A stretch of DNA of 64,000 nucleotides from Isurus oxyrinchus. Its lineage: Eukaryota. A model generated the notes under the pieces. The model was not told the origin of the DNA. It was given only the letters and a program-made list of their open reading frames with translations, and ran no database searches. The position numbers and the translations under genes are program-made. How positions within the stretch are numbered: position 1 is the stretch's first letter; each line of letters starts with the position of its first letter. The stretch is taken from contig JANJGN010000646.1 of the NCBI GenBank assembly GCA_026770705.1, positions 124,001 to 188,000 of the forward strand, written 5' to 3'. Of the stretch, positions 3,136 to 63,414 are shown one piece after another.

Positions 3136-3332
3136 ACCTCTGTTATATGTGAATCCTCCTTATAGAAACCTGCATGTACATGGATATTATCAATAAATAT
3201 TACATAGATAAATGTTATTTGTATAGACCTTTCATGCATAGACAATATCACTTCACAAGTTCAGAATTACTACATGTACATAGGGAACCATTCTCAAACT
3301 GTACCGGAGTCATTCATTGGCTGATTTTACAG

Positions 3333-3429
3333 GGCGAGATTCCAATGAATGGAAAGCAGGATTGCTTGGAGCTGGAATCTGTTTGAGTGTTGGACTGAGT
3401 GGATTCTTCATCTTCAAGTGTGTGAGAAA
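3333..3429 (+). CDS. Locus 1 transmembrane exon (RRDSNEWKAGLLGAGICLSVGLSGFFIFKCVRK)
   Basis: ttttacag acceptor in phase 1 with the preceding exon; 20-aa uncharged hydrophobic stretch then a basic stop-transfer; aa|gtaagt donor (phase 2). Not in the ORF track. Confidence 0.85.
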
Positions 3430-3744
3430 GTAAGTGTGAAGGTTTAATTGGTTGTTTTTGAAAATGTTTTCTTCAAACTTCTCTCCTTATAGAAAGAACT
3501 TGCATTTCTATAGCACCTTTTACAATCCAAAATCCTTCGCAGTCCCTGAAGAGTTTTGATGTTCACCTAGTGTTTAACATCTCATCCAACACTCACTGTT
3601 TCACAACTCAGTCCTGTAACTGGCAGTGTTGACCCGGACCATAAAATAGCTTCTGACCTCCTGAGTTTGTGAATGCTGCTATACAAATAAAAACCTTTCT
3701 TTTGTTAGTGAATGCAATCTCTTTCCATTTTCCATGATTCATTC

Positions 3745-3945
3745 ACTCTCTCTTATCGCCACTAATGCACGCCTTCTCATTCTCTCTCTCATTCACTCCC
3801 TCTCTTATCTCCACTAATGCTCTCCTTCTCATTATCTCTCTCATTCCCTCTCTCTCCAATCTCCACTAATGCTCTCCTTCTAATTCTCTCTCTCATTCAC
3901 TCTCTCTCCTATCTCCACTAATGCTCTCCTTCTCATTCTCTCTCT
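3745..3945. repeat. ~51-bp CT-rich tandem repeat (about 4 copies)
   Basis: ccactaatgctctccttctcatt recurs. Confidence 0.85.
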
Positions 3946-4237
3946 CGTCCTCTTACACGTTGTTCAGTCTCTCACATTTTTAAGGAGTGCTGAGCAACAT
4001 CTGCTCCTTCAGAAGATCCACCTCAACACCTGGAGTGAGCAGTGAATTGAAACTCGCTCAACGACTGCTCAGCTTTACACAGGAATCACGTCACAGAGTC
4101 AGGACACAAAGGGTTAACTGTTTGCTTACAACACAACACTAAGGCCCTACATTTCAATGAAAGTGTTTTCACAATTGTTCCCCAATTCCTGATTTGACTC
4201 ACAGTGACACATCAACCCTTTCTCATTAAATACACAG

Positions 4238-4322
4238 AGGGATCAGCACAGGAAGAGGTCATTCAGCCCAAGCAGAGCGTGTGGGCAGTTCCTCCCCAGG
4301 CGAGCAGTCGGACAGGTCCTGG
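4238..4322 (+). CDS. Locus 1 putative cytoplasmic exon A (KGISTGRGHSAQAERVGSSSPGEQSDRSW)
   Basis: The only phase 2-to-0 exon I found linking the TM exon to 4834; cacag acceptor, tgg|gtaagt donor, open frame. Homologous to the 5'-UTR exons of loci 2 and 3. Confidence 0.55.
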
Positions 4323-4514
4323 GTAAGTAACAGAATGATTGGAATTCACTTCCACCACCAACACCGTCCTTTGTTGAGGTTGTGACTTTATAAAGACAGA
4401 TTCCAATGATTGATGCCTTTGAAAGATTTCTACTGATTATTGAGATCTGGGTGTGAGGCTCAAGTCTGTTGTACAGAACATCTTTCTGGTTAAATTGTGC
4501 AGACAGGTTACACA

Positions 4515-4765
4515 CAGTCTACGATTATATTCCCTCGGGTCTAGAAGATTAAGGAGGGATCTAACTGAGGGGTTCAAACTGATTAAACACTCGATAGGGT
4601 CGATAGAGAGAAGCTATTCCCTCGGGTGGGGGTGGGTGGTGGAGGTCGGGTGGAGTCCAGAACAAGGGGGCTGGAACTTCAGATTGGAGCCAGGCCATTC
4701 AGGGGTGATGTCAGGAAGCTCTTCTTCACACAAAGGGGAGTGGAAATCTGGAACTCTCTCCCCAA
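4515..4765 (+). mobile_element. CR1 LINE 3' fragment
   Basis: LYSLGSRRLRRDL and RKLFFTQRGVEIWNSLP motifs. Confidence 0.8.
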
Positions 4766-4833
4766 TAATCAAACCCAACACCGAATACACATCATGTTGA
4801 TTGTCACTCTGTCCATTTCCATCTCTATTACAG

Positions 4834-4938
4834 AAGAGAGGCAAGGGGAAAGCAGGAATCAAATCGACCCATCGTGTTGATGAACATCGAAGTCCTGTTT
4901 ATGAAAACTGTGAGCGTGGTTGGGCTTTGAGGAATCAG
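4834..4938 (+). CDS. Locus 1 cytoplasmic exon B (KRGKGKAGIKSTHRVDEHRSPVYENCERGWALRNQ)
   Basis: tattacag acceptor, cag|gtgagt donor, phase 0-0; tyrosine motif VYENC. Confidence 0.8.
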
Positions 4939-5070
4939 GTGAGTCACACACCACAGGATCCCCAGCCTCTCAGCTGCTCCAGTAGCCTGGTTATTGATAT
5001 GGCTGCTCCAGTCCTGTATCTGCAATGTTTTATACAGTCACTCCCAAACCCAACCAAACTCACACCCAAC

Positions 5071-5810
5071 ACCGTTCAGAATCAATAATCAAACCCCGTT
5101 CAGAATCAATAATCAAACCCCATTCAGTATCAATAATCAAACCCCATTCAGTATCAATAATCAAACCCCGTTCAGTATCAATAATCAAACCCCATTCAGA
5201 ATCAATAATCAAACCCCGTTCAGAATCAATAATCAAACCCCGTTCAGAATCAATAATCAAACCCCATTCAGAATCAATAATCAAAACCCATTCAATATCA
5301 ATAATCAAACCCCATTCAGTATCAATAATCAAACCCCGTTCAGAATCAGTATTCACACCCCGTTCAGTATCAATAATCAAACCGCATTCAGAATCAATAA
5401 TCAAACCCCATTCAGAATCAATAATCAAACCCTGTTCAGAATCAATAATCAAACCCCATTCAGTATCAATAATCAAACCCCGTTCAGTATCAATAATCAA
5501 ACCCCGTTCAGAATCAATAATCAAACCCCATTCAGTATCAATAATCAAACCCCGTTCAGAATCAATAATCAAACCCCTTTCAGTATCAATAATCAAACCC
5601 TGTTCAGAATCAATAATTAAACCCCGTTCAGTATCAATAATCAAACCCCCTTCATTATCAATAAACAAACCCGGTTCAGTATCAATAATCAAACCCCATT
5701 CAGAATCAATAATCAAACCGCGTTCAGAATCAATATTCAAACCGCGTTCAGAATCAATAATCAAACCCTGTTCAGAATCAATAATCAAACCCTGTTCAGT
5801 ATCAATAATT
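5071..5810. repeat. 24-bp minisatellite (aatcaaaccccgttcagaatcaat), ~30 copies, intronic
   Basis: Tandem copies between the two tyrosine-motif exons. Confidence 0.95.
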
Positions 5811-5907
5811 AATGTATCTATTGTGGGTGGAATTTTCGATTTGGATCAATAATACTAAACACTGATCACTCTGATTGTCACTCTGATCATTTCTGTTTCT
5901 ATTACAG

Positions 5908-6024
5908 AAGAAAGATGAGAAGGATCTGGAAATGAAATCTATCCGCGGAGTCAATCCTGATACAGATGATGATCTTTACGCAAACTGTGATTTTGCCAAG
6001 GATTCTGTTTATGGGAATTTATAA
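5908..6024 (+). CDS. Locus 1 terminal cytoplasmic exon (KKDEKDLEMKSIRGVNPDTDDDLYANCDFAKDSVYGNL*) with ITIM-like motif
   Basis: tattacag acceptor, phase 0, ends TAA at 6022-6024; SVYGNL fits the ITIM consensus (S/I/V/L)xYxx(L/V/I). Confidence 0.82.
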   Translation, partial: KKDEKDLEMKSIRGVNPDTDDDLYANCDFAKDSVYGNL

Positions 6025-8139: not shown

Positions 8140-8284
8140 TAACCACTTCCTCATTTTGTCTCACAGTGACACATCAACCCTTTCTAATTAAACACACAGA
8201 GGGAGCAGCACAGGAAGAGGTCATTCAGCCCAAGCAGAGCGTGTGGGCAGTTCCTCCCCAGGCGAGCAGTCGGACAGGTCCTGG
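8140..8284 (+). promoter_or_regulatory. Locus 2 promoter/5'-UTR exon module 1 with PU.1/ETS-like site
   Basis: cacttcctcattt (AAATGAGGAAGTG on -) at 8144-8156; donor tgg|gtaagt at 8284/8285, ~410 bp upstream of a leader exon; module repeated at 10325 and 30900. Confidence 0.55.
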
Positions 8285-8727
8285 GTAAGTAACGGAACGA
8301 TTGGAATTCACTTCCACAACCAACACCGTCCTTTGTTGATGTTGTGACTTTATAAAGACAGATTCCAATGATTGATGCCTTTGAAAGATTTCTACTGATT
8401 ATTGAGATCTGGGTGTGAGGCTCAAGTCTGTTGTACAGAACATCTTTCTAGCTCAAGGGATGAGGGAAGTGCAGGGACATGAGCTTTGGGGTGTCCTGAG
8501 CAGGTAAAAGGTGATATAGAAATGCAAGTCCTTCATTGTTTTACTTTCTTAAAGCCTTATAACTCTCTGCAGAGCAACTATCATCCCACAGAGAATGAAA
8601 TTAGTCTGTGAAGACATTGTCTAAAAGCAGTTCCGATCTCTCGAGAGGTGTCGGACAAGAGGTGAGGTCTCGTTAATTCATTTCTCTTTCACAGCTTGAG
8701 AACCAATGAAATACCTGGGAGTGTACA

Positions 8728-10324: not shown

Positions 10325-10468
10325 TCCAACTTCCTCATTTTGTCTCACAGTGACACATCCACCCTTTCTAATTAAACACACAGAGGGAGCAGCACAGGAA
10401 GAGGTCATTCAGCCCAAGCAGAGTGTGTGGGCAGTTCCTCCCCAGGCGAGCAGTCGGACAGGTCCTGG
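10325..10468 (+). promoter_or_regulatory. Locus 2 promoter/5'-UTR exon module 2 (canonical donor mutated gtaagt>ttaagt)
   Basis: Near-identical to 8140-8284; ETS core acttcctcattt retained. Confidence 0.5.
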
Positions 10469-10918
10469 TTAAGTAACGGAACGATTGGAATTCACTTCCA
10501 CCACCAACACCATCCTTTGTTGATGTTGTGACTTTATAAAGACAGATTCCAATGATTGATGCCTTTGAAAGATTTCTACTGATTATTAAGATCAGGGTGT
10601 GAGGCTCAGGTCTGTTGTACAGAACATCTTTCTAGCTCAAAGGATGAGGGAAGAGCAGGGACATGAGCTTTGGGACATCCTGAGGTGGTGAAAGGTGCTA
10701 TAGAAATGCAAGTCCTTCACTGATTTATTTTTTTACAGCTTTTTAACTCTCTGCAGAGCACCTATCATCCCACAGAGAACCAAATTAGTCTGTGAAGACA
10801 TTGTCTAAAAGCAGTTCTGATCTCTTGAGAGCTGTCGGACAAGAGGTGAGGTCTCATTAACTCCTTTCTCTTTCACAGTTTAAGAGTCAGAAGCTAAAGG
10901 CATATCTGGGAGTGGACA

Positions 10919-11889: not shown

Positions 11890-14800
11890 AACACTTCAGG
11901 CTCCCGCTGCAGGAATGGATCTTTGAGAAGGATAGGGAACAAGCGGTTTCTCATATCATGTTCATATTTATTGACAATTACATAAGTGCATGGAACTGTT
12001 GAATATTTGGCTCTCTAAAGTGTGGATTTAACCTTCTGGTCCACCCAGATCTTGTGCTGGTTACCTTGTCTGGAGGTGTCTTTAACTGCTCACAGTGGTC
12101 TGTGGGATTGTCACCCTTGGATGTTGTTCCTGATTTCATGTGGGATCTTCTCCTCGATGGAATAGGAGCGGGAATGGATCTGATTTATCCTCGGTTCCGC
12201 CTCACCGCTGTGCCCTTGTGTGTTTGACTCCATAGGCCCTTGGTTCTGAACAAATCCTTGTCACCTCGGCTGGTGGTCATGAACCTTCTGTGGGATCCTG
12301 GATGTGAACTTGTCCCAACTCTAAACTTGGCAACTCTGCACCTCCATTTTTATCATGAACATTCCTTATCTTCTCTTGTAGTTTTAAAAGCTGCCCTCTG
12401 GTTTCTGAGAGAGTAGAATGGGTAAGAGTAGCGAAATTGGTCACTACTGGCACACCAAACATGATCTCTGTCAGTGATGGAATAAGGTGAGGTGATGGTG
12501 TAGTGGTATTGTTGCTGGATGAGTAATTCAGAGACCCAGGGTAATGTCCTGAGGATATGGGTTCAAATCCGGCCATAATAGATGATGGAATTTGAATTTA
12601 ATAAAAATATGAAATTCAAAGTCTAGTGATGACCACAAAACCATTGTTGGAAATCCCACCTGGTTCACCAGTGCCCTGTAGGGAACAAAATTGTCTGGCC
12701 GACATGTGACTCCAGACTCCACGTCAATGTGGTTGACTCTTACATTAGGGATGGGTAATAAATCCTGGCCTCGCCAGTGACTCCCACATCCCATGAATGA
12801 ATTTAACAAAGTTGCAGTTGTAGGTGTCGATCTCAGATGTAACATTGCAATGTGTGGATCTTGCTTGGCCTGTCTACATTTGAGAATTAGGGATTTCACT
12901 GTGTGAATCATTCATTCAGCTATGCTGTTAGATCTGGGGTAATGAGGAGAAGAAGTAGTGTGATTGATATTCCAGATTATCTGTAATCATGTCCCTAGGT
13001 TCACCAAATAATCTGAAAATCGTGCTTAGAGTGTGTGCACCAGTTGTGCTCGGTGTGTTGTGCTATTTTTGAATAACGGGATATCTGGTAAAGCTGTCGA
13101 CGATGACGATGAAGTCAGTGACATGGACATGAAAGGATTCAGATGTGATTTTGGACTAAGAATAGGCAGGAATTTCCTGTGGAATCAGTGGTTCTTTGTG
13201 TTGACTTGGCTCATCCTCTTGACAAGCCTCGAACTTCCCTACAACAACTTCAAGGTCATTGTTAATACCCGGCCAGGGACTGTATCTCTTGTGAGTCTCC
13301 TTGTCTGATCTGTGCCCATGTGTGAGGGATGAAGTTGTTGAAGAATATAGGATCACAAATGTGCCGGTATGATGCCCTGCCTGCCAATTTAGAAGACTCC
13401 CTGGGAGATACCTCGCTTATCTCGATGAGGTCAAGTTGAATCAGGCCACCCTTTCAATGATATTTCCACAGTTCCTGCCGAATTTTTCACTGTTCCCTCT
13501 TGTAGCTGCTGGCATTTCTCTTGTGCTAAATGTACTGGATCAATTGACAGACTTGCATTCTCCTGCAGGTGTAATGTTGCAGCTCCCTTGAAACTGACAA
13601 TACTGTTGAAACTTTCTGCATATTTCAATGTTATGTCCATGAACTGAGTTGCTGGGGTAGTTTCTGAGTTTGACCCATGTGAGGTCTGACAGATTCCATG
13701 GATTGTCTCTAGGGTGAGGTCACCGCATGCCAGTAGACTTGCAATTGCTCAGCCTTTAGTCTCCACGATGTAGAACATCTGTGACACCCAGGAGGATTGA
13801 TTGTACTTGCACCCCAGGACTATGGATTCTGCACATGGAGTTGGTGAAGTGTTGTACACAGCAGTAGGTTTTCCCATGGACTCCCATGTCCTTGGATACA
13901 TGTCTTTGAAAATTTGCTGGGGTGGGCTGTGGGAGGGGAATGTTGGCACTTGCCCCTGTGTCAATCTTGGTCAATAAAGGGGAGGTTGCAACTTTCTCAG
14001 GGCAGAAAATTGGAATCTTGGCCAATAGTGCGGGTGATGTGACAGCATCTGTTCTCCGTGAGATTGATGGTGTAAAAGGTTTGAAATTGTTCAACAATTG
14101 TACAATACGTTGAGCACAAGTGCTGCACAAACTCTAGGCTGGGGTTTTCCGGCACAGTCATGATGGGCCCTGCCGTGGGAGATTGGACAAACATTGGCTT
14201 TCGGCCGGACCGGACAATCCTGGCAGTGGGTGGGGCCAGAAAATCCCACCCCTATGGGACATTTTCAGTTTATTTGATGTGCCCAGAGAGATCTTTAAAG
14301 ACAACAATCCACAATTTATTGGCAAGCCACGTCAGGATATGTGTGAGAGGTGGAATATCGATCACCACTCCTCGTCTCACCGTGTACATCATCGCCATTT
14401 CCTGGTTTGTCAGTCACCACATGTATATGTTCCTGATGGGATAGTGGATGGTCATTCTTATTGCTTGAAGGTTCCCCGTTGTGTAGGGTCTGTTTGGATC
14501 AGCGCACGGCTCTTTGTAGCTGCATGAGCCTTTGCTCTAGTGCCCTGCCGCTGTCAATGGCCCTTTCTGCCACAAGCCTTGCAGGATTGGTGGAAAGCTG
14601 GGCATTTCCTTGGTGCCTGCAGAAGGCCACACCTTCCACACTTCTCACTAGGTTTGGATGTTCTAGTGAGTGTGTCAACAATTGATGTTGTACTGAGGAC
14701 CTGTAATCTTCGTTGACCTGCGAGGATCACTTCGTATTTATGTCCATCCTTGAGTAGCTCTTCAATGCTATAGGCTTTGGTCGTATCTAGCAGTTCTCAC

Positions 14801-17181: not shown

Positions 17182-17550
17182 TTGGACTGTCACAAGAGTG
17201 GAAAGGTGACACTCCACGAGAGGTGACAGCACAGAAAGGTTCGTGTGTACAGATTCCATGTAATTACAATTACCCATCACATTTGTTAGAGAAAACACGT
17301 GTTGGAATCTGGAAAATGAGAAGGGACAAATGGCATACATCGTCTATAGCCTTTCACTCCAAGGATCACAGTCACGAGTTACCACGGTTCCACCATCGGA
17401 CCCGGCTGTCTGGAGACCTGAAAGATGGTGACTGTTCCCTGACTATAAACAACATCAGACGGGAAGATGCAGGACCTTATTTTTTCACGATAAAATTTGG
17501 CAATGGTCCGAGCCATAACTATTACCCTGTAACCCAGCTTCACGTTTCTG
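17182..17550 (+). CDS. Locus 2 Siglec-type V-set exon V-A (lacks the essential F-strand Arg)
   Basis: ccccag acceptor, g|gtaagt donor, 369 nt open; Siglec hallmarks GSCVQIPC, RTRLSGDLKDGDCSL, DAGPYFF (B-E intra-sheet disulfide, no F-strand Cys); YFFT in place of YFFR. Confidence 0.9.
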
Positions 17551-17816
17551 GTAAGTGCTGTGTTATAATTACTCAACAATTCACATTCAACACTCAATGG
17601 GAAATAATAGTGTTTGATTTGCTTGTTTTTTGGCCGTGTTAACCAGCGTCACTATTTTTAATGATTTGTCTATTTCTGCTCCCAGATCCATGAGCTTATT
17701 GTGTGTGATTGAATCCACATCATAGCTGTAACGTAAACCGAGCTGAGGGGTGATGACACCTCCCCGCTGAGTGAAGTATCTCCTCCCCACTACACCTTCC
17801 ACCCCTCACACTGTCC

Positions 17817-18790
17817 GTGTAAACCCCTGTCCCATCTCCAGCCTCTCTTTCCCCTCCAAAGTCCTTGAACGTGTTTCCATCTCCCGAATCCGTTCCCATC
17901 TTTCCCGGAACTCCATGTTTGAATCCCTCCAATCAGGTTCCCACCCCAGCCACTGTGCTGAAACAGCTCTTATCAAGGTCACAAATGGCATCCTGTGTGA
18001 CTTTGACAAAGGTCAACTTTCCCTCCTCGTCCTTCTCGATCTGTCTGCAGCCTTTGACCCGCTCGACCACACCATCCTCCTCCAACACCTCTCCACTGTC
18101 GTCCAGCTGGGTGGGACTGCTCTCCCCTGGCTCCATTCTTATCCATCTCATCGTAGCCAGAGAATCACTTGCAATGGCTTTGCAGCATCATCTGAACAGT
18201 ATTAGTTTTCACCTGTCCACTGAGGATCCCCAGCTCTACCTCACCACCACCTCTCTCGACTCCTCCACTGCTGCTAAATTATCAGGCTGCTTATCCGACA
18301 TCCAGTACTGGATGGGCAGAAATTCCCTCCAATTAAATATTGGAAAGACTGAAGCCATTGTCTTCATTCCCCACTCCAAACTCTGTTCCCTCGCTACCAA
18401 CTCCATTCCTCTCCCTGGCAGCTCTCTGAGATTGAAGCCAATCTGTTCACAGCTTTGTTGTCCCATTTGATCCTGAGATGAGCTTCCGGCCTCATATCTG
18501 CGCCCTCACTAACACCGTCTATTTCCACCTCCGTAACATCGTACGACTTCACCCTGTCTCAGCTCATCTGCTGCTGAAACCCTCATCCACGCCTTCATTA
18601 CCTCCAGACTCGACTGTTCCAACACACGGTCTACACTCCATAAACTTGAGGCCATCCAAAACTGCTGACCACGTCCTTACTCACACCAAGTCCCATTCCC
18701 TTATCACCCGCTCTGCTCGATGACCGAGACTGGCTCCTGGTCAAGCAAAGTCTCAATGTCCAAATTTTCATCTTTGTTTCCTCACTATCT
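17817..18790 (+). mobile_element. L2-type LINE RT fragment (shorter copy at ~37480-38085)
   Basis: ETALIKVTN, LLDLSAAFD and LQLNIGKTE RT motifs. Confidence 0.85.
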
Positions 18791-19885
18791 CTGTAATCTC
18801 CTCCTCCTCCTCCGCCAGCCCCTACAACCCTCCCTATCTCTGTAACTTCTTTCAGTGACCAGAAACCACCCCTATCTCAGAACCTTCCTCCAGCTCCAAC
18901 AACCCTCCCTTTCTCTGCACCATTCTCCAGCCACTCCAACAAACCCTATCTCTAAACCCCCTTCCAGTCCCTACAGCAATCTCTATCTATGTATCCTCCT
19001 CCAGTCCCTACAACCCTCCCTATCTCTATAAACTCCAGTCCCTACAGCCCTCCCTATCTCTATAATCTCCTCCAGTACCTACATCCCTCCCTATTTCTAT
19101 AACCTCCTCCAATCCCTACAGACCTCCCTATGTCTATAACCTCCCCCAGTCCTTACAGCCCTCCCTATCTCTATAACCTCCTCCAGTACCTACATCCCTC
19201 CCTATCTCTATAACCTCCTACAGTTCCTACAGCCCTCCCTATCTCTATAACCTCCCCCAGTCCTTATAGCACTCTTTCTCACTGTAACCTCCTCCAATCC
19301 CTACAGCCCTCCCTATCTCGATAACCTCCTCCAGTCCCTACATCCCTCCCTATCTTGATAACCTCCTCCAGTACCTACAGCATTCTCTATCTCTGTAACT
19401 TCCTCCAGCCACAACAAACGTCCCTATCTCTGTAACCCAATCCTGTACCTACAAACCCCCTATCTCCATAACATTTCCCATTCCCGTCCACCCTCCCTAT
19501 CTCTGTTACTATCTTTTGCCCCTAAAGCCTCCCTTTCACTGTAAATTTCTCCAGTCCCTACAAACCCTCTGTCTCTGTAACCTACTCAGGCCCCTAAAGC
19601 CTCCCTTATCCTTTAACGTCCAACAGTCCCTACAATCCCCTTTTCGCTCAAAGCTCCTCAAGACCCAACAATGTTCCCTAACTCTGTAACCCCATCCTGC
19701 CCCAACAACCCTTCCTTTCACTGTAAGTTCCGCCAGACCCTCCAACCTTCCCTATCTCTGTAACCCCATCCTGCCCCTACAACCCTCCCTGGCTCTGTAA
19801 ACTCCTACAGCCCCTCCAATCTTTCCTACCTCTGTAGCCTCACTACAGCCTCTGTACAAACTACAGCCCCTACAACCCCCCGAGA
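18790..19885. repeat. ~38-bp minisatellite (cctacaaccctccctatctctgtaacctcctccagcc)
   Basis: Tandem degenerate copies at the L2 3' end; shorter arrays at 38085-38460 and 55335-55700. Confidence 0.9.
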
Positions 19886-20739
19886 TCACTGCGCTCCTCC
19901 AATTCCGGAATCTTGACCATCACCGGATGCTATCGCTCCAAAATTGGCGGCCGTGCCTTCTGTTGCCTGGGACCCTAAGCTCTGGAATTCCCACCCAAAT
20001 CCTCTCCCTATCTCTCTCTCTCTCTGTCTCTTTGTCTCTTTCTCTCTATCTCTCCATAACACCGACCTCTTTTGGTCAGCTGTCGCTAATATCTCCACAT
20101 GTGTCTGGGTGACATACTTTGTTTTATGACGCTCCTGTGTAGCACCTTGGGGTGATTTGTCATGTTAAAGTTGTTGTGTAAATATAAGTTGTTGCCCTTT
20201 GACCCTCGACCCCAGATCGAGTCTTATTTTTGAGGGAATGTACAACCTCCTTAGATTTCTGACCAAAATGTCATTTGATTATTTTTATTGAGCGAATGCC
20301 AAGCCCCAATACCGAGCGAGAGCCTCCTCATTTGCTGAGTTTAAGGTGATGAGTCAGCCCCTTAGTCCGTAGCGGGGATTCTCCTGGGTAATGTGCAGCC
20401 TTGTTTGTGTCTCTCCACAAGCGCATGAGGGGTTTGTACAGAGGCTGCAGCGCTGGAGGGGGTCTGCACAGGGGTCCTGGCCTGTCCTGAGCTGGTTTTA
20501 GCAAGGACCACTCTGGCCTTGGCAGCTGAAAGCCAGCCATTGGACAGACGGGGCCTGTCACAAGGAGCCTGTTAGTCACTCCCCCCAGTGTCTCCTGTGC
20601 TCGGATCCAGACCATGTTGGCTGGTGGATCTGGCTCAGGAAGGGTCGTCCCCATGGGACCCCCAGATGGAAGGTGGGTCGAGCGGGTCAGTCACTTGCAT
20701 GTTTATTCTGCAGCTTTAATATTTTAAGAAGGTAAGAAT

Positions 20740-21500
20740 GTAGGAACATAAGAAATAGGGACAGGAGCAGGCCATTCGGCCCCTCGAGCCTGCTCTCGCT
20801 GATCTGGTTGTGGCCTTAACTCCATTTTCCTGCCTGTCCCCCAAACCCTTGACTCCCTTGTCGATCAAAAACCTGCCTCACTCAGCCTTGAGTTTATTCA
20901 ATGGCCCAGTCTCCACTGCTCTCTGGGGAAGGGAATTCCACAGGCTAGCGCCCCTCTGAGAGAGGAAATTCCTCCTCATCTCAGTCTTAAATGGGAAAGC
21001 CCTCATTCCGAAACTGTGCTCCCTGGTTCTAGATTCCCCCACGAGGGGGAAACATCCTCCCAGCATCCACCCTGTCAAGCCCCCTCGGAATCGGATATGT
21101 TTCAATAAGGTCACCACTCATTCTTCTAAACTCCAATGGATACAGGCCCAACCTGCTCAACATTTCCTCACAGGACAAACCCTTTAATCCCAGGAATCAG
21201 CCCAGTGAAGTTTCTCTGAACTGCCTGTACACAATGATCCTGTTACAATCTCACCAACGCCCTGTGCAGCTGTTGCAAGACTTCCCTCCTTTTATACTCC
21301 ATCCCTTTGCAATAAAGGCCAACATTCCACTTGCCTTCCTCATTCCGTGGTGTTCCTGAATGCTGACTTTCTGTGATTCATGTACCAGGACACCCAGATC
21401 CCTCTGTACTGCATTCTGCAGCCTCTCTCCATTTTAATAATATTCTGTTTTACTATTCTTCCTGCCAGAATAATTTGTTGCCATTCTCCTCAGTATTGAC
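20740..21500 (-). mobile_element. CR1 LINE 3' fragment (copy at ~39330-40090)
   Basis: FKTEMRRNFLSQR..SLWNSLP and QRDLGVLV motifs on -. Confidence 0.8.
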
Positions 21501-21589
21501 CATCCTCCAAATTCAGCCACATCTGTAAATATCGGGTTCAGTGGATCCACAAACCATCCAGAGTTAAATATTGATATTTCTCTCCCCAG

Positions 21590-21955
21590 CTGAACCCTCA
21601 CAAGAGTGGAAAGGTGACACTCCACGAGAGGTGACAGCTCAGAAAGGTTCGTGTGTACAGATTCCATGTCATTACAGTTATCCATTGTGTCTGGAAAACC
21701 AACCGCGAGGTGGAGTCTGGTTTAATAATGAGGAATGGAGAACATCGTCTATAGCCTTTCACTCCAAGGATCACAGTCATGAGTTACCACGTTTCCACCA
21801 TCGGACCCGGCTGTCTGGAGACCTGAAAGATGGCGACTGTTCCCTGATTATAAACAACATCAGATGGGGAGATGCAGGACCTTATTTTTTCAGAATAGAA
21901 TTTGACAGCGGAAATAGATACAGCTACTATCCTGTAACCCAGCTTCATGTTTCTG
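21590..21955 (+). CDS. Locus 2 Siglec-type V-set exon V-B (essential Arg present, YFFRIE)
   Basis: Intact splice sites, 366 nt open, phase 1-1, same Siglec motifs. Confidence 0.92.
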
Positions 21956-22683
21956 GTAAGTGCTGTGTTATAATTACTCAACAATTCACATTCAACACTC
22001 AATGGGAAATAACACAAACTGTGCCGTTTACATATTAACACAAAACACAGCTTATTATAACACACTGTCTGATTCTCAATAACCTGGTGATAGCTTCCAG
22101 TTCAGTCCTAAAGCAACATCTAATACTCACTTTAATATCAATGATTAAATGTATTGACTGTGTCCATCAGTGTTATCAGGTTATCCACTCGCACCGATCT
22201 CTCTAATCCTGTCTCGAAGTCTGACATATCGATAGAAGAAATATTCACATTTCTATAGCACATTTCACCATCTCAGCATGGACCAAATCACTTCACAGCC
22301 AATGAGCTGATTCCTGAATTGTAGTTACTGTTGTAAAGTGGGAAACACAGCAGCCAATTTGTGCACAGCAATCTCCCACAAATTGCAAAGTAATAAATGG
22401 CCCAGATTGCTGAGGGACTGATGGGGTAGTGCACTCCAAACTCTGGTCTGCTCCACCACCCTCACCCACTATTATCAGTTCAAGTGTCTCGGAGTGAACG
22501 TGTATTAAGCTGAGAGACAGAAACACCAAAGTCTCAAAGCAGGAAATTCTCTCCTGATCGTTGTAACCTCTCAGTTCTGATATCATCCTTGTAAAAGTGC
22601 TTTCTCTTGTGGGACTGTGATTTCTATTTGAACTGATGCTTCACGTTATATTTCTCTAAAAGGATCCATTCTCTGTCTGTTAG

Positions 22684-22980
22684 ATTTCACAGATAAACCC
22701 ACGATATTCCCTGCTGAAATTATTGCAGGAAAGCGTGTGGATGTAAGCTGCACCTTCAACACAACGTGCAATGGAACAGCAGCACCTGTCTTAACCTGGG
22801 ACATTCCCACTGACGTACCTGGATCAGTCTCAAACACTGTAACTCAGCATGGTGTCACTCTGACCTATACTTCTGTTCTGACCCTGATCCCATCACTCAA
22901 ACACCACGGACACACTCTCAGCTGCAGAGTGAGATATCCATCTGTTTCATCGGAGCAGACCCTCGTACTAACTGTGCAAT
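22684..22980 (+). CDS. Locus 2 C2-set Ig exon 1
   Basis: Intact splice sites, 297 nt; about 3 nucleotide differences from 746-1042 by eye. Confidence 0.92.
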
Positions 22981-23274: not shown

Positions 23275-23455
23275 CTGCGATCTGTCTGTTGAGTCCTGCC
23301 CTGACATCTGAATATCACAATGAACAGAACAAGTTCCAACAATGAGCTGTGGTTGGTGATTCCTTACGTTACATCCGGGGACACTGGAGACTATCAGTGT
23401 GTGGCAGAGAATGAACATGGACCAGTGGATGGGCTCATAACCATCACTGTGGAAC
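23275..23455 (+). pseudogene. Degenerate extra copy of C2 exon 2 (5' half disrupted)
   Basis: 3' half (MNRTSSNNELWLVIPYVTSGDTGDYQCVAENEHG...ITVE|gtgagt) retained; acceptor and 5' half replaced by unrelated sequence. Confidence 0.75.
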
Positions 23456-24282
23456 GTGAGTGTACACAGACTTCAACATCTCTCTCAGATTGAATCATGA
23501 CACAAACACACACAAATATACAGACCTAAATAGACACCTGCAGACACACAATCCCACATGTATGAGCACACACAATGACACACTCACAAACTAACACACT
23601 CAAACACATCTCCCCCGTGGGTTACCTGACCTCCATCAGTGCTGCATCGGAGAGTTGACGTAGATTCTGGGATTTGTGTTCCCATTCATATTTCTGGAAG
23701 AACATGGAAATTGCAAATTCTATTAGACACTCAAATGCACAGAGATACTTACAGATACTGATTGCCTCTCCAACTCTCTCTCTCCCTTGAAGAATCTTCT
23801 TCAAACCAAACCCTTTGACCAGGCATCTGTCCCAACTCCTCCTTCTGTGAATCTGTGTGAAATATTGTTTGAGTATCTGAGAGTAAGAGAGAGGTGGAGA
23901 GGTTTAGGAAGGGAATTCCTGTTGGTGAAAAGCTTACATCATGTTCCCACCTTTCCAGAGCCCATTTTGCACATGATGTCCAATGTCCCTGTTCATCATG
24001 GGGATTGCCTATGTAAACATCACGCTGTAGTTACACTCTCCTACCAGTGGTGGCACGGTAGCACTTAACCCTTGCATCTCCCAGATTTTCAAGCAATTTC
24101 ACTTCCCAATTTGCTACTACTCACCTCAACCACTCCCTGTGGGAGCGAGTTCCACATTCTCCCCTCTCTCTGGGTAAAGATTGGAACTGTTTATTAAGCG
24201 GGGGGTGTAAGTCCGTGGGGGAGTCCATCTCGATCCTGCCCGATTCGCACACAAGTCCGAGATGGATTTCCATCTTGCACTA

Positions 24283-25394: not shown

Positions 25395-25676
25395 ACGCAC
25401 CACGGAATCTGTCAATTACTTCTCCAGATATGATTAACGCTTCATCGATCAATATAATTGAGGGGAATTCTGCAGTGATAATCTGCTCTGTCGAGAGCTC
25501 CCCAGCTTCTAACCTGACGTGGCGACATCTTAATGTCCCAATGAACAGAACAAGTTCCAACAATAAGCTGTGGTTGGTGATTCCTCACGTTACATCCAGG
25601 GACACTGGAGAATATCAGTGTGTGGCAGAGAATGAACATGGAGCAGTGGAGGGGTTCTTAACCATTACTGTGGAAT
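25395..25676 (+). CDS. Locus 2 C2/I-set Ig exon 2 (YAPRNLSI...DTGEYQCVAENEHG...ITVE)
   Basis: ttag acceptor, t|gtgagt donor, open frame, close paralog of 1787-2068. Confidence 0.92.
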
Positions 25677-27380: not shown

Positions 27381-27520
27381 ACAGTGGAGGAGAGATTCTG
27401 CACGTGATCCTGATCCTGGGAATACGAGCTGTGATATTCCTTGTGGCTGTGGTTATCACTATCGCTGGAGTCTGTGTCTGGGAGAGACAAACAGTGCAAG
27501 GAAGTCGACAGATTGTTTGA
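27381..27520 (+). CDS. Locus 2 TM plus short-tail exon, activating type (YSGGEILHVILILGIRAVIFLVAVVITIAGVCVWERQTVQGSRQIV*)
   Basis: ctctag acceptor in phase 1; long hydrophobic segment with Arg (CGA 27425-27427); stop at 27518-27520; donor at 27542/27543. This frame is not in the ORF track. Confidence 0.85.
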
Positions 27521-30899: not shown

Positions 30900-31044
30900 T
30901 ATCCACTTCCTCATTTTGTCTCACAGTGACACATCCACCCTTTCTAATTAAACACACAGAGGGGGCAGCACAGGAAGAGGTCATTCAGCCCAAGCAGAGC
31001 GTGTGGGCAGTTCCTCCCCAGGCGAGCAGTCGGACAGGTCCTGG
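30900..31044 (+). promoter_or_regulatory. Locus 3 promoter/5'-UTR exon module with PU.1/ETS-like site
   Basis: cacttcctcattt at 30904-30916, donor tgg|gtaagt; paralog of the 8140 module. Confidence 0.55.
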
Positions 31045-31493
31045 GTAAGTAACGGAACGATTGGAATTCACTTCCACGACCAACACCGTCCTTTGTTGAT
31101 GTTGTGACTTTATAAAGACAGATTCCAATGATTGATGCCTTTGAAAGATTTCTACTGATTATTGAGATCTGGGTGTGAGGCTCAAGTCTGTTGTACAGAA
31201 CATCTTTCTAGCTCAGGGATGAGGGAAGTGCAGAGACATGAGCTTTGGGACGTCTTGAGGTGGGGAAAGGTGCTATAGAAATGCAAATCCTTCAATGTTT
31301 TTCTTTCTTAAAGCCTTGTAACTCTCTGCAGAGTACCTATCATCCCACAGAGAGTCAAATTAGTCTGTCAAGACATTGTCCAAAAACAGTTCTGATCTCT
31401 TGAGAGCTGTCGGACAAGAGGTGAGGTCTCATTAACTCCTTTCTCTTTCAGAGTTTGAGAGTCAGAAGCTTATGAAATATCTGGGAGTGGACA

Positions 31494-31533
31494 ATGATCA
31501 GGAAATCCTACTTCCTCCTGTCACTTCTCCAAG
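31494..31533 (+). CDS. Locus 3 leader exon MIRKSYFLLSLLQ
   Basis: Paralog of the other leader exons; intact donor g|gtaat. Confidence 0.72.
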
Positions 31534-32459: not shown

Positions 32460-34915
32460 CAGTAACTCTTCAGGCTCCTGCTGCAGGGATGGATCTTTGA
32501 GAAGGACAGGGAACAAGAGTTTCCTGGTATCATTTTCATATTTCTTGACAATAAAATGAGTGCATAGATCTGTTGAATATTTGAGTCTCTAAAGCGTAGA
32601 GGTAATCTGCTGTTATGTCGAGATCTTGTGGTGGCAAAATTGTCTGGAGGTATCTTTAATTGCTCACATTGATCTGTGGGATTGTCATTCTTCGATGTTG
32701 TCCCTGGCTTCAATTGACATTACACCCTTGATGCAATTGAGGAGGCTTTAAACTAAGATGACAGGGGATGGGATCCCGAGAGGAGGTTCAACAGAGAGAG
32801 ATGCACAGCCAGAATTAGAAGAGAGAGCAAATGAACCTGGAAGGCATAGAAATTATTGGCCATTTAAGGCTCAAGATAGCGTGGCAAAGTTGGATTGTAT
32901 TAATTTTAATGCAAGGAGTCTGACAGACTTGCATTCTCCTACAGGTGTAATGTTGCAGCTCCCTTGAAACTGCCAATATTGTTGAATCTTTCTGCATATT
33001 TCAATGTTATGTCATGAACTGAGCTGATGGGATAGTTTCTGAGACTGGGACAGACATAAATCCATTGGCTTTCGGCCGGACCGGAAAATCATGGAAGTGG
33101 GTGGGGCCAGAAAATCCCACCCCTATGGGAACATTTTCAGTTTATTTGATGTGCCCAGAGAGATCAATAAAGACCACAATCCACAATTTATTGGCAAGCC
33201 ACGTCAGGATATGTGTGAGAGGTGGAATATCGATCTCCGCTCCTAGTCTCGTCGTGTACATCATCGCCATTTCCTGGTTTGTCAGTCACCACATGTATAT
33301 GTTCCTGATGGGATAGCGGATGGTCATTCTTATTGCTTGAAGGTTCCTCGTTGTGCAGGGTTTGTTTGGATCAGCGCACGGCTCTTTGTAGCTGCATGAG
33401 CCTTTGCTCTAGTGCCCTGCCGCTGTCAATGGCCCTTTCTGCCACAAGCCTTGCAGGATTGGTGGAAAGCTGGGCATTTCCTTGGTGCCTGCAGAAGGCC
33501 ACACCTTCCACACGTCTCACTAGGTTTGGATGTTCTAGTGAGTGTGTCAACAATTGATGTTGTACTGAGGACCTGTAAGCTTCGTTGACCTGCGAGGATC
33601 ACTTCGTATTTATGTCCATCCTTGAGTAGCTCTTCAATGCTATAGGTTTTGGTCTTATCTAGCAGATCTTTCTGGAAGGCTTCCATGGGAGTGGATGCGA
33701 TCACCAACTCAACAACTCTGTCTGCAGACTCTGTGTTTGAAATCACAGTGCGTACCCTTTTCTCTACATCGGCTGATGAAGTGGTCTATGGATTGTGTAG
33801 GCTGATGAAATGACATAAACTCTAGTTGATGAATATGGAGCTTAACCTGATTCTGAACCTGTCTTCCAATATCGTCCATATCTATTGGGGATCCTTTCAC
33901 TCTTCTGCTGTTAATCCTGATGTGCTCAGCCTGTGTAGACCTTCATTCCCAATCGCGAGGTGAATTTTTATGGGTGGCTCGTCTGGTTCAGTCACAGCTG
34001 AATCAGGAAACCAGAGCTCTGTACGCTGTTTAAACATTCTGAATTCAGATAGTCGGTCAGCTACATCCCAGTTCAAACTGGGGAATTTCGTGGACATTCT
34101 GACAATATTCCTTTGATCTTCCTTCTCCTACAGGATCTGGGATGAGTGTCGCTTTAGCCCCTTTTGTGTGCTTTTCCGAAGCTCCGCCCACGAAGACGGG
34201 TTGTGGCAGGAACACACCACGGAGTAATGGAGTCTTTGTTTTTTATTCAATTTACTGTTCAGCAATCTCGAAGCCGCCCGTTATAATCACTAACTTCTCT
34301 GGGCTGATTTTTATAATGGTTTTTGTGTGTTTGACTCTCCCTCACTCACTATCGATCCAGCCCACACCCTGGTCACTCGCCTTCCCTGACTGAGCTAACC
34401 CGCTGCTGGTCCTGGCGATACACACTGTCCCACTCACTGACCTACAGGCTGTGTGCTGTAATCTCACCACGAGGGATCCGTCTGCTCCCCAGCTCTTTAC
34501 TTGTGCTCTGTCCCGTCACTGTGTCTTCAAAGGTTTCCTGAGCAGTCAGTACACTGCGATTTCAACCCTCTCTGATGCTGTGTCTCTGTTGTGGTCTGAC
34601 CAAAGCGTCGAGGGTCGTCTCATGTCATGTAGCTCGATCTAAGGCTGTTCACCACGTCATACCTGTACTGAATCTTGCTGCCAGAATGTTTGGCCACCGC
34701 TGATCACCATGCTGTGTTTTTATAATGATATAAAGGCACCAGCCACTGATACGGAATTGGGTAAACACATTGTGGGTTCAGTTATTTAGAACAGGGACAT
34801 GAGAACAGATATACAGGATAGAAAGCTGGGAGACACCTGCAGCCAAACTGTGTGAGCTGTGTTCTGCTCACAGGCCAAAGTGAAACTTGGACTGGATGGT
34901 GTTATCATCCCAGCT
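32460..34915 (-). mobile_element. Duplicate Gypsy remnant retaining more gag and less pol
   Basis: gag ORFs FPSLNWDVADRLSEFRMFKQR and CGRCG...CPAFHQSCKACGRKGH; PBS at 34692-34709. Confidence 0.82.
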
Positions 34916-36835: not shown

Positions 36836-37213
36836 TTGGATTGTCACAAGAATGGAAAGGTGACACTCCACGAGAGGTGACAGCGCAGGAAGGTTCGTGT
36901 GTACAGATTCCATGTCATTACAGTTATCCAGCACATCTAGTAGGGAGAGCATGTGTCGGAATCTGGTATATGAAATGGTACACATGGAATACATGGTCTA
37001 GAGAGACCATAGCCTTTCACTCCAAGGATCACAGTCACGAGTTACCACGGTTCCACCATCGGACCGGGCTGTCTGGAGACCTGAAAGATGGCGACTGTTC
37101 CCTGATCATAAACAACATCGGATGGGGAGATGCAGGATATTATCATTTCAGAATAGAATTTGACGGCAACAATAGTTACAGCTACTATCCTGAAACCCAG
37201 CTTCACGTTTCTG
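36836..37213 (+). CDS. Locus 3 V-set exon V-C (open; YHFRIE, long Trp/Tyr-rich C-C' region)
   Basis: 378 nt open with intact splice sites; Siglec motifs; downstream exons of this locus are disabled. Confidence 0.8.
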
Positions 37214-40177: not shown

Positions 40178-40546
40178 TTGGACTGTCACAAGAGTGGAAA
40201 GGTGACACTCCACGAGAGGTGACAGCACAGGAAGGTTCGTGTGTACAGATTCCATGTCATTTCAGTTATCCATCGTGTCTGGAAAACCAACCGCGAGGTG
40301 GAGTCTGGTTTAATAATGAGGAACATATTCCCTGGGCTCCCATTGACTTTCACTCCAAGGATCACAGTCACGAGTTACCACGGTTCTGCCATCGGACCCG
40401 GCTGTCTGGAGACCTGAAAGATGGCGACTGTTCCTTGATCATAGACAACATCAGATGAGAAGATGCGGGACCTTATTTTTTCAGAATAGAATTTGACAAT
40501 GGTCCAAGCCATAACTATTACCCTGTAACCCAGCTTCACGTTTCTG
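40178..40546 (+). pseudogene. Locus 3 V-set exon V-D with premature stop
   Basis: In-frame TGA at 40456-40458 (NIR*EDAGPYFFRIE); otherwise a full Siglec V exon. Confidence 0.88.
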
Positions 40547-41272: not shown

Positions 41273-41568
41273 AATTCACAGATAAACCCACGATATTCCC
41301 TGTGAAATTATTGCAGGAAAGCGTGTGGATGTAAGCTGCACCTTCAACACAACGTGCAATGGAACAGCAGCACCTGTCTTAACCTGGGACACTCCCACTG
41401 ACGTACGTGGATCAGTCTCAAACACTGTAACTCAGCATGGTGTCACTCTGACCTATACTTCTGTTCTGACCCTGATCCCATCACTCAAACACCACAGACA
41501 CACTCTCAGCTGCAGAGTGAGATATCCATCTGTTTCATCGGAGCGGACTCTCGTTCTAACTGTACAAG
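41273..41568 (+). pseudogene. Locus 3 C2 exon 1 with 1-bp deletion frameshift
   Basis: 296 nt versus 297; ccctgtgaaa versus ccctgctgaaa near 41302. Confidence 0.85.
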
Positions 41569-41854: not shown

Positions 41855-42032
41855 GATCTGTCTTGTTGAGTCCTGCCCTGATATCTGAATATCACAATGA
41901 ACAGAACAAGTTCCAACAATGAGCTGTGGTTGGTGATTCCTCACGTTAAATCCAGGGACACTGGAGACTATCAGTGTTTGGCAGAGAATGAACATGGAGC
42001 AGTGGAGGGATTCATAACCATCACTGTGGAAT
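41855..42032 (+). pseudogene. Locus 3 degenerate C2 exon 2 remnant
   Basis: Same 5' disruption as 23275-23455; no intact C2-2 or TM exon found downstream. Confidence 0.75.
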
Positions 42033-43419
42033 GTGAGTGCACACAGATTTCATCATCTGTCTCAGATTGAAACATGACACAAACACACACAAATATACAG
42101 ACCTAAATAGACACCTGCAGATACACAATCCCTTGTATATGAGCACACACAAAGACACCAACAAACACACTAGCACAATACTCCCCAGTGGGTTACCTGA
42201 CCTCCCTCAGTGCTGCACTGGAGAGTTGACCTGGATTCTGAGATTTCTGTTCCCTTTCATGTTTATGGAAGAATATGGAAATTGCAAAGTCTATTACAGA
42301 CACTCAGATGCATAGAGACACTCACAGATACTCTCTGTCTCTCCAACTCTCTATCCTCCTTTAAGAAGCTTCCTGAAACCTATCCCTTTGACCAGTCACC
42401 TGTCCCAACTCGTCCTTATGTGATTTTGTGTGAAATTTTGTTTGAGTATCTGAGAGTAAGAGAGAGGTGGAGAGGTTTAGGAAGGGAATTCCTGTTGGTG
42501 AAAAGCTTACATCATGTTCTCACTTTTCCAGTGCCCGTATTTCACCTGATGTCCAATGTCCTTGTTTATAATAGGGATTGCCTATGTAAACGTCACGCTG
42601 TAGTTACACTGTACCACCAGTGGTGGCAAGGTAGCACTTAACCCTTGCATCTCTCAGCTTTTCAAGCAAATCCACTTCCCAGTTTGCTACACAAAAAAAA
42701 AACAGCGAGAAATATTCTTGTTTTTGCATGAACTTCATGTGTGCATGAAACACAGGCATCAGAAGCAATTTTGTACAATGTTCTTTAGGCAGCGCAGCAC
42801 TCCCTCTGTTCAAACCCTCCAACAGTGCAGCACTCCCTCAGTTCAAACCCTCCGACATTGCAGCTCTACCTCAGTTCAAACCCTCCGACAGTGCAGCACT
42901 CCCTCAGTTCAGACCCTCCGACAGTGCAGCACTCCCTCAGTTCAAACCCTCCGACAGTGCAGCACTCCCTCAGTTCAGACGCTCTGACAGTGCAGCACTC
43001 CCTCAGTACTGATCCTCCGACAGTGCTGCACTACCTCACTAATTAGCGACTGGAAGGTTTATGTTCATTTATCTTTATTTTCCATTCCTATTGAGCTATG
43101 GAGCTCCTGATTTGTCACCTTTCTGTACCTCGTCCAATGCTTCTGTTATCAGGACTTCCACATCGATGTGAAAGAGCCATGATGATAGCAGACAGTCGCA
43201 CAATGGGAATGGCACTAGGCCAGTGATCCAGAGGCCCAGGTGAATGCTTTGGAGGTAAGGGTTCAAATCCCACCACGGCAGCTGGAGGAATTTAGATTCG
43301 ATTAATCAATAAATTTAATTGATTGATACATTTTTTTCTTATTCATTTCAGGGATGTTGGTGTCGCTGACTAGGCCAGTATTTGTTGCCCATCCCCAATT
43401 GCCTTTGAGAACATATGGA

Positions 43420-57290: not shown

Positions 57291-58607
57291 ATAAAGAATG
57301 TTTTAAGACCTGCTCATGATTTCAGCTCAAAACTCAGGTAGATTCTCCCCAGTGAGGGAGTGGTGAGGGAGTGCTGCACTGTCAGAGGATCAGTACTGAG
57401 GGCATGCTGCACTGTCAGAGGGTAAGTACTGAGGGAGTGCTGCACTGTCGGAGGATCAGTACTGAACACAATGTCCATTCAGAACAGCTCGGTCCCCGAT
57501 CAGAGAAACAGCCTCAGACAGAACCAACTGACGCTGGAATCCATACAATTCATCAACGTGTTGGGAGTTAGTTTGATGTCGGAGATGGAGTGTTACTGGG
57601 AAGGAGGGAACCCGTCAGGATGAACAGCTCGATGTACGATAAGGAAAGGATGAGCTAAGAGGGGTTGGCCACGGACAGACGGAGCATGTGAAGACTCAAC
57701 AACCTAATGGCAGGTGAAGAGCTGGAAAGGTGTCTTTTCAACACAAGGTTTAGACACAGATCTCGATGTTTGATCGGGTATTTCAAACCAGAGAAACTCT
57801 TTACAGGGTGAATGGACCTTGTCAATAATCCATCCAGCCAACCTCGCCTGGAGATTAGTTCCATATTAGACACTAAACCGAGTCCCCCGTCTGCCCTCTC
57901 GGGCGGGTGTGAAAGATCCCACAGCCACTATTTGGTGGAAGAGCAGGGGGGAGTTCTCCCCGGTGTCCTGGCACCAATATTTATCCCTCAACCAACATCA
58001 CCAAAAACAGATGATCACATTGCTGTTTGTGGGAGCTTGCTGTGCGCTAATTGGCTGCTGCGTTTCCTACATTACAACAGTAACCACACTTCGAAAAAAG
58101 GGTGAACTCTGTTGTAAAGTGTTCTGGGACATCCAGAGACCATGCTGTACAGAAGAGATTTGACAGGAGCAGCAAGTGTTTTACTTACAGGAGAATGAGT
58201 CCCCAGGGTTGTAGAGTCAATCCTGTCAGATGAATGTCTAACTGGAGACACTTCAGGGAGCTGATCTCATTCTGGAAATGTTCAGTTTACCAGGATCGGA
58301 GGAGAGATGATCTTCCTCTCCTGACTGCATCGGACACGAGGTGAACTGGCTCTGGGAGGAGGGTCAGTGTTAACCCAGTTTTTCTGTGTTTGAGGGAGAT
58401 GTGAAACTGGGGAAGTCACGTGGTTTTTTGGTGTGGTCACTCCATGTCTTTATTTGGTGCAGCACTCATTTAGTTCATGTCGTTGTTTCAATGCTACAAA
58501 ACCACAACGCATTCTGGACTATTTCTGCCTGACCTGCTGTCAGATACACACAGTCTGACAGAGAGGCGGAAAAGTGATCCCTAGCAACGTGTGAAACTGT
58601 GAACTCG

Positions 58608-62692: not shown

Positions 62693-63414
62693 ACAGAGTG
62701 AAACCTCCTTGAGTCTGGCCACTGTGTTTAACATTTAAGGCACACAGACAGGATGTGGTTAAAAGGTGAAACCACAAGGAGTGAGTGACTTTCTCAGTGA
62801 CTGTCTCTCTGTGGGTTTCCTGTGGGTTTCTATGAACTGCCTGTGGTTTTAAAAAAAATCTTCCAACCCCACATGCACGGCATCAAATAAGGATTTGGAA
62901 GCTGCAGCTCAGAGAGTAACTAGTCCCCCGAGAATTCACAGCCCCTCAAACACAGATTAACAGCATTAATCCTGACCGTCAGCCCACTCACTCATTGCCT
63001 CTTGTCTCAGACACTAGAAAGTGGAAGTTAAGGCCGGATTTTCACTCCCGGGTCGGGGGTCACAGAGACGGCAGGAAAAAATAACAAAATATGTCTCGAG
63101 CACACAGAGCTCCAAGGGAAGGGTCGTGCTGCAGCTAAGGTGTGAGACATGGCACATTCCCCGGATGCAGCATTGAGGCTTGTATGTCTACACAGCTGAT
63201 GTAGGTGCACATGGAACACATGTGAATGAGCACTGTGATGCACACACACCCTGGAGAGTAATATCCCTCCATGCACTACATATCAGGCTAACATCAACTC
63301 ATGTTGTCATTGCTGACCAACAGGGTTGAAGCAGGTCACAGAGACGGCTGCGTCTGGGGTTGGGCCAGCCTCCCTGAGACTCACCGTCCTAACATTTGAT
63401 TGGATCACGTCCGA

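Follow-up and report, generated by a model that had tools for sequence, protein, structure and literature searches.

A 64,000-nucleotide stretch of the 4.98-Gb Isurus oxyrinchus genome (G000:C646:124001-188000, referred to as the window) contains an intact Siglec-like gene, locus 2, composed of a leader, two consecutive V-set exons (V-A and V-B), two C2 exons and a short Arg-bearing membrane anchor. The inner V exon, V-B, carries an extra Cys in its BC loop that marks inner V exons in this family. The main product of locus 2 is probably a single protein of the order leader-V-A-V-B-C2(-C2)-membrane, with the V-B BC-loop Cys probably bonded to the A′ Cys of V-A. We infer this disulfide from the exon order, the open frame, the even Cys count, the confinement of the extra Cys to inner exons and the V-to-V splicing seen at the family level in one sample. 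The Cys-bearing inner V exons and the tandem V layout are themselves real features, with exon order, frame and splice sites read in the window. Strand and loop names (A′, B, E, F, C-C′) follow established usage, and all exons of loci 2 and 3 lie on the forward strand.

Exon organization of locus 2

V-A (17182–17550; 369 nt) is the outermost V-set exon and V-B (21590–21955; 366 nt) the inner one. Both are open, bounded by AG and GT, and of phase 1-1, and they share 84% DNA identity. V-A encodes an A′ Cys (codon 17244–17246), a His at the position seven residues after the B-strand Cys (BC+7), a long basic/aromatic C-C′ loop and a Thr (codon 17487–17489) in place of the essential Arg. V-B begins with AEPSQ, has the A′ Cys and retains the essential Arg, which aligns with the Arg of Siglec-5 and CD33. 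Its BC-loop motif CHYSYPLC ends in the BC+7 Cys (TGT, 21688–21690), to which the A′ Cys of V-A is likely to bond. The C2 counterpart of this residue lies six residues after the B-strand Cys (codon 22767–22769 in the first C2) and probably pairs with the A′ Cys of V-B. The full spliced ectodomain has 10 or 12 Cys, an even number; a leader-V-B-C2 form would have 7 (odd) and a leader-V-A-C2 form 6 (even). No leader was found between V-A and V-B, where the best match to family leaders is 5/13 residues and a weak hydrophobic ATG..GT candidate at 20099 is unlike any family leader; no C2 exon was found between them either. A preliminary description of this DNA had reported two V exons without an intervening leader or C2 exon at both locus 2 and the neighboring locus 3, a BC-loop Cys in each second-position exon and an AEPSQ start in V-B. 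All of this is borne out, the second-position exon of locus 3 (V-D) reading CHFSYPSC and starting with VGLSQ.

Two leader exons precede V-A: L0 (8728–8767; 13 codons plus 1 nt, phase 1), and L1 (10919–10958), for which RNA-type contigs provide a leader-to-V joint with GT..AG at the family level. Downstream of V-B are the first C2-set exon (22684–22980), identified by its domain match and in the spliced model, a 5′-truncated remnant of a second-type C2 (23303–23456), and an intact second-type C2/I-set exon (25395–25676) that may be included or skipped. The membrane exon (27381–27520) is of the activating type. It contains an Arg (codon 27425–27427), a stop about 15 residues later and a tail with neither Tyr nor an immunoreceptor tyrosine-based inhibitory motif (ITIM). 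Every splice site is canonical, and the spliced frame is open for 497 residues with the second C2 and 403 without it. Four more copies of locus 2, more than 99% identical over 10.9–16.5 kb, have the same layout; haplotype copies may be among them. In all 5 copies seen, V-A has an open frame and intact splice sites, and the tandem intact leaders L0 and L1 are both retained.

Pfam matches of the locus-2 exons are V-set, Ig_CD22 and C2-set_2, with the V-set preceding the C2-set as in Siglecs. The V-set homology to Siglec-5 has a phmmer E value of 1e-13. The best solved-structure matches in a PDB sequence search are Siglec-5, CD33, sialoadhesin and Siglec-8, and the top PDB matches by fold are likewise Siglecs. 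In the V domain, the B- and E-strand Cys pair aligns with the Cys of Siglec-5 and CD33 and the F-strand Cys is absent, and the residues of the Siglec interdomain disulfide (the V A′ Cys and the BC-loop Cys of the first C2) are present in V-A, V-B and C2. The V-set homology, three-Cys V pattern and C2 BC-loop Cys are shared with CD33-related Siglecs (CD33, Siglec-5, -7 and -10) and with MAG/sialoadhesin. CD33-related Siglecs have a single N-terminal V-set domain, whereas locus 2 has two V exons. The N-terminal V has Thr rather than the essential Arg, and locus 2 is therefore classed as Siglec-like. Protein relatives numbered 114, all of them shark or ray models; 113 are named, mostly as Siglec-, CD33- or MAG-like, and one has no name.

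An extra cysteine at the inner V position

A search of the genome with V-B DNA gave 814 first-look candidates (40 scored) spread over at least 12 contigs, and on this measure the shark family is far larger than the CD33-related Siglecs. Annotation covered 2,043,184 bases on 8 contigs picked around search matches rather than at random. It yielded 88 gene units, 51 with one V exon, 30 with two, 5 with three, 1 with four and 1 with six, so that 37/88 are multi-V. Of 136 V exons, 126 could be scored for the BC+7 Cys and 10 could not. The Cys is present in 46/47 inner V exons and in 0/37 outermost V exons of multi-V genes. It occurs in 5/39 leader-bearing single-V genes, four of which have a stop and a shifted leader, and in 2/3 single V exons for which no leader was detected, one of the two broken and the other at the edge of a block. 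Among 75 intact exons, the codon is TGT wherever Cys is encoded and CAT, TAT, GAT, AAT or CGT elsewhere. An EPSQ/KPSQ start was found in 32/43 intact inner exons and 0/55 intact leader-proximal exons; it is a weaker inner marker than the Cys because only those 32 of the 43 have it. The six-open-V gene at G000:C52:3101869-3124875 (L041–L043) has an activating-type anchor and five inner V exons at a spacing of about 2.3 kb, all with the BC-loop Cys.

The two V positions also differ elsewhere in the domain. The essential Arg is lacking in at least 15/33 intact outermost exons (a column misread in 3/33) and in 0/43 inner exons. Mean amino-acid identity is 0.785 among outermost and 0.902 among inner exons, and the pooled ratio of nonsynonymous to synonymous differences (pN/pS), calculated from non-independent pairs, is 0.82 and 0.57, respectively. 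Multi-V genes end in activating (15) or long-tail (17) membrane regions, with 5 left unassigned.

Several comparisons bear on whether the Cys reflects shared descent or a retained mark of position. Among 145 variable columns in 44 canonical, closely related V exons, inner position is most strongly associated with nt 98, 99, 100 and 102, the Cys codon region, and this association outranks that of the columns adjoining the upstream intron; the Fisher p-values of this comparison and of the protein contrast below count related copies as independent and are descriptive only. V1 and V2 of one gene differ at 11/369 nt, of which 4 lie at nt 1–8 and 4 at nt 98–102, the pattern that homogenization with a retained position-specific residue would leave. 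A tree of 67 exons was built after masking the initial 11 nt and the three codons around the Cys. It sets an outermost group apart from the canonical group and intermingles Cys and non-Cys exons in the latter (12 changes), and a topology uniting the Cys exons in one clade is rejected on the masked data (approximately unbiased test, p-AU 0.0015), although sequence exchange between copies weakens any tree of these exons.

The contrast extends, less strictly, to other species. In the 114 related proteins, after exclusion of 11 truncated and 4 after-gap domains, the BC-loop Cys is present in 38/49 inner V domains, 0/81 first V domains with a recognized leader and 1/24 without one. A wider set with cluster members added (unique domains of at least 105 residues, P0001 isoforms excluded, all automatic gene models) gave 41/58 inner and 6/112 first V domains. 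The six exceptions are three models that are incomplete at the N terminus and three white shark models in which a Cys-type V follows the leader directly. Cys-type inner V domains were found in lamniform, carcharhiniform, orectolobiform, sawshark and ray proteins, and in a quick tree of few columns they fall in several lineage-specific groups. The ray four-V proteins (P0010, P0011, P0148 and P0150) have the BC Cys in V3 only, with an extra C-C′ loop Cys in V2 and V4, and each ray inner V therefore still has four Cys; rays may reach the same Cys parity through a second acceptor site. The essential Arg is replaced in several inner domains of these ray proteins. P0001, a seven-V basking shark model, looks like a fusion of neighboring genes and was excluded from the maximum V count.

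A profile search added 132 proteins. Eight of them have tandem V domains, namely frog, turtle and cardinalfish models and a primate Siglec-12. Inner V domains with an extra Cys elsewhere occur in P0178 of Xenopus laevis (A strand) and P0273, snub-nosed monkey Siglec-12 (C-C′ loop); these are possibly separate solutions to the same unpaired-Cys problem. The preliminary description had treated Siglec-12 as the sole tandem-V exception among Siglecs, which no longer fits the database models with tandem V domains from frogs, turtle, teleost, sharks and rays.

Splicing, domain geometry and competing explanations

Contigs from four runs of one sample were searched for exon joints; their RNA status is a guess, yet the joints match the predicted GT..AG sites. 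Leader-to-V, V-to-C2 and C2-to-membrane joints were seen at the family level. In run X2, three contigs have V-exon-end letters directly before a V-B-type start (11 letters, agreement 1), and a further V-end to V-start joint has one letter in between. V-to-V splicing therefore occurs in the family. In other family contigs the membrane exon follows the first C2 directly; the second C2, bypassed there, may be left out of the product. A leader-to-AEPSQ joint is not among the joints listed, which is not evidence of absence. A second contig set, on a paralogous gene (four runs), showed the leader joined to V in X2 and X6 and V joined to C2 in these two runs and in X5, the three coming from three studies; no V-to-V joint is among those listed for this gene, and X14 is probably DNA. 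One V-to-C2 contig was placed on V-A with 6 differences in 201 nt, compared with 0–2 for V-A's own copies and 5–11 for inner or single paralogues. It was rejected as an instance of exon skipping, being more likely a paralogue's ordinary junction.

The predicted fold of a basking shark V-V-C2 homologue has a mean pLDDT (predicted local distance difference test) of 81.8 and a pTM (predicted template modeling score) of 0.65. Its V2-C2 superposes on domains 1–2 of Siglec-10 and CD33 with Z 19 and a root mean square deviation (rmsd) of 2.7–3.5 Å (Z 19.2, 2.8 Å over 210 residues for Siglec-10). A predicted V-V homologue (pTM 0.50) aligns over both domains on domains 1–2 of CD33, Siglec-10 and Siglec-5 at 5.0–6.2 Å, with 204–209 residues aligned head to tail on CD33 and Siglec-10 at 5.0–5.5 Å. 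The rmsd of V1-V2 is 9 Å to MAG, 11 Å to PD-L1 and 14–17 Å to antibody fragments (Fab, scFv).

A disulfide relay would account for these features. The V-to-C2 disulfide is documented for C169 of CD33 (PMC7426717), and loss of the C46–C172 V-C2 disulfide of Siglec-6 abolished a binding activity (PMC10122656). If every Siglec V has an A′ Cys that normally pairs with the BC-loop Cys of the following C2, duplication of the V would leave the outer A′ Cys without a partner. The inner V, with a Cys in the corresponding loop, would restore the relay, V1 to V2 and V2 to C2 (Cys35–Cys170 and Cys158–Cys287 in the spliced locus-2 model), allowing V exons to be added until a gene has as many as six. The outer V, which often lacks the essential Arg and has a longer, variable C-C′ loop, would form a diversified head that may bind ligands other than sialic acid. 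The inner V would retain the sialic-acid site, and the membrane-anchor Arg would recruit an activating adaptor. Recruitment of adaptors with immunoreceptor tyrosine-based activation motifs (ITAM) by a charged anchor is known from paired Siglecs (PMC13358205, PMC4042635). The preliminary description had proposed V-B as the internal domain of a V-V-C2-C2 protein. The position-specific Cys, the even Cys counts and the family V-to-V joints favor the internal placement and make the disulfide probable, and the second C2 may at times be missing from the proposed order.

A number of observations weigh against a V-A to V-B disulfide in a single main product. The last 12 letters are identical in 51/75 intact V exons, and for this reason the V-to-V joint is not specific to locus 2; the RNA evidence as a whole consists of short contigs from one sample whose RNA status is guessed. 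The genome counts are not independent, many units being near-identical duplicates, and well-supported branches of the tree hold just one independent pair. One intact-looking single-V gene (C71:2197939) carries the BC+7 Cys. The Cys is absent from 17/58 inner V domains of database models, including V2 and V4 of the ray four-V proteins, and it occurs in 0/12 inner V domains of tandem-V proteins from other vertebrates. Four white shark models join the leader straight to a Cys-type V, among them P0133, an isoform of a two-V locus in which V1 is skipped. The V1-V2 fit to Siglec domains 1–2 is looser than the V2-C2 fit (2.7–3.5 Å), and the modeled superposition fits a similar head-to-tail joint without locating the two sulfurs.

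The same tandem V-V protein could use its extra Cys otherwise, in a chain-to-chain dimer or with another partner, leaving the outer A′ Cys free or paired elsewhere. Siglec-E is given as a disulfide-linked dimer (PMC6829431), and extra Cys at other places in the inner V of rays, Xenopus and primate Siglec-12 indicate that the geometry is not fixed. Such a use is unlikely in view of the position of the Cys, in the same loop as the C2 acceptor Cys and one residue further out, and of its presence at just those positions where an A′ Cys would lack a partner; nor does a dimer role explain the 0/37 count in outermost exons. A second explanation, raised in the preliminary description, takes the V exons as alternative cassettes, one V per transcript, giving different specificities from one gene. 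Because every V exon is phase 1-1, skipping would preserve the frame; the Cys count of leader-V-A-C2 is even, the white shark isoform P0133 skips V1, and one V-to-C2 joint was placed on V-A, although that contig more likely comes from a paralogue. Mutually exclusive neighbors are not joined to each other, whereas V-to-V junctions exist in X2 at the family level. Leader-V-B would expose an unpaired Cys, the AEPSQ/KPSQ start confined to inner exons alters the end of the signal peptide region, and the inner exons of one gene are often near-identical and offer little diversity to choose from. Cassettes are accordingly unlikely as the main design, a prospect we rate somewhat lower than another use of the Cys, and exon skipping could persist as a minor form, with the leader running straight to a Cys-type V in the P0133 model.

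The least probable account, and a very improbable one, makes V-A an orphan of duplication or deletion and the Cys a neutral passenger that was copied when the inner exon and its intron were. Gene birth and death are rapid in the cluster, where pseudogenes are numerous, self-alignments indicate that the upstream intron of inner exons is common by descent, and counts are inflated by duplicates. Set against this are the open V-A with intact splice sites in every copy seen, the association maximum at the Cys codon rather than beside the intron, and the retention of the Cys in the inner V of several shark orders, in domains whose remaining sequence clusters mostly by lineage. The relayed tandem-V protein thus remains the probable product of locus 2. 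It makes a directly testable prediction, one disulfide and one point change, and a single codon marking inner position is a natural experiment on how a terminal Ig domain turns internal.

Relation to known Siglecs and neighboring features

The mammalian CD33-related Siglecs and MAG/sialoadhesin have one V domain; the shark genes have 1–6 V exons, an extra BC-loop Cys in the inner V and an outer V often without the essential Arg. Reviews give one V as the Siglec rule with Siglec-XII, which has two V domains, as the exception (PMC6829431), and the shark family departs from this rule. No account of shark multi-V Siglecs was found in the open-access literature searched.

Primate Siglec-12/Siglec-XII has two V domains before the first C2, an arrangement that the genomic order and the family-level V-to-V contigs support for locus 2, and it too has lost the essential Arg in the outer V, by R122C in the human protein (PMC6288428). 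Human Siglec-XII is described in PMC6829431 as lacking the Arg in both V domains, whereas V-B of locus 2 keeps it. Snub-nosed monkey Siglec-12 V2 has no BC-loop Cys and instead an extra Cys in the C-C′ loop. Siglec-12 is fixed at two V domains with an inhibitory-type tail, and Siglec-XII recruits SHP-2 (PMC6288428); the shark multi-V genes have 2–6 V exons, and locus 2 has an activating-type anchor, its short tail not matching the ITIM-type tail of Siglec-12. The tandem V arrangements of Siglec-12 and the sharks are likely of independent origin. The frog, turtle and cardinalfish models, all automatic, also have two or three V domains in a row, without a BC-loop Cys in any of 12 inner V domains. 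Human SIGLEC12 has a shorter splice form with one V. Arthropod Dscam has tandem arrays of similar in-frame Ig exons used as mutually exclusive cassettes; the shark genes differ in that V-to-V joining occurs and inner exons bear marks of internal position.

Like the paired Siglecs (Siglec-5/14, Siglec-11/16; PMC4042635, PMC13358205), the shark genes set near-identical heads on either a short charged anchor or a tail bearing tyrosine motifs, and they show signs of sequence exchange. The shark system involves dozens of genes rather than two pairs, and its V number varies. With its charged membrane residue and no ITIM tail, locus 2 matches the activating members (Siglec-14/16 type). These comparisons point to an undescribed paired-receptor system in cartilaginous fish, the exposed head of which may have left sialic-acid recognition. 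A broader and more tentative proposal, which we regard as possible but doubtful, is that sharks made the Siglec V a stackable, disulfide-relayed module, with an outer head, fast-evolving, microbe-binding and released from sialic-acid binding, over one to five conserved, Arg-bearing V domains that would read sialic acid, on activating or inhibitory anchors. If so, hundreds of such genes would amount to a germline innate repertoire reading two ligands at once.

Locus 3 repeats the V-V order of locus 2 in a broken form. It has a leader exon (31494–31533), V-C (36836–37213), the outermost V, open and without the BC+7 Cys, V-D (40178–40546), the inner V with the BC-loop Cys, and a frameshifted first C2 with approximate ends (41274–41568). 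It is a pseudogene, as judged by the stop codon at 40456 in V-D, the frameshifted C2 and the absence of a membrane exon within the window. The gene upstream of locus 2 ends (3332–6021) in a membrane exon without a charged residue, and its tail carries two tyrosine motifs, of which the last is ITIM-like. It also has two V exons, the outer with Thr for Arg, and inhibitory-type and activating-type two-V genes therefore adjoin.

Copies of a cytoplasmic-tail exon of the long-tail-gene type lie just 5′ of the leaders in the window (8197–8297, 10381–10481 and 30957–31057) and about 500 nt upstream of most leaders annotated. RNA-type contigs connect a leader end to the start of a tail-exon copy (10956 to 10382), perhaps reflecting L0 splicing into the 5′ region of L1. 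In most activating-type genes, the membrane exon with the Arg is preceded by a 5′-truncated C2 remnant (23303–23456 and 41880–42046 in the window). Broken retroelement-like frames with a Cys/His knuckle lie on the minus strand (12000–14800 and 33000–34200), within the introns between leader and V of loci 2 and 3. The end of the window (58000–64000) is low in GC (0.33 at 60–62 kb) and includes a 730-nt direct duplication and four N runs.

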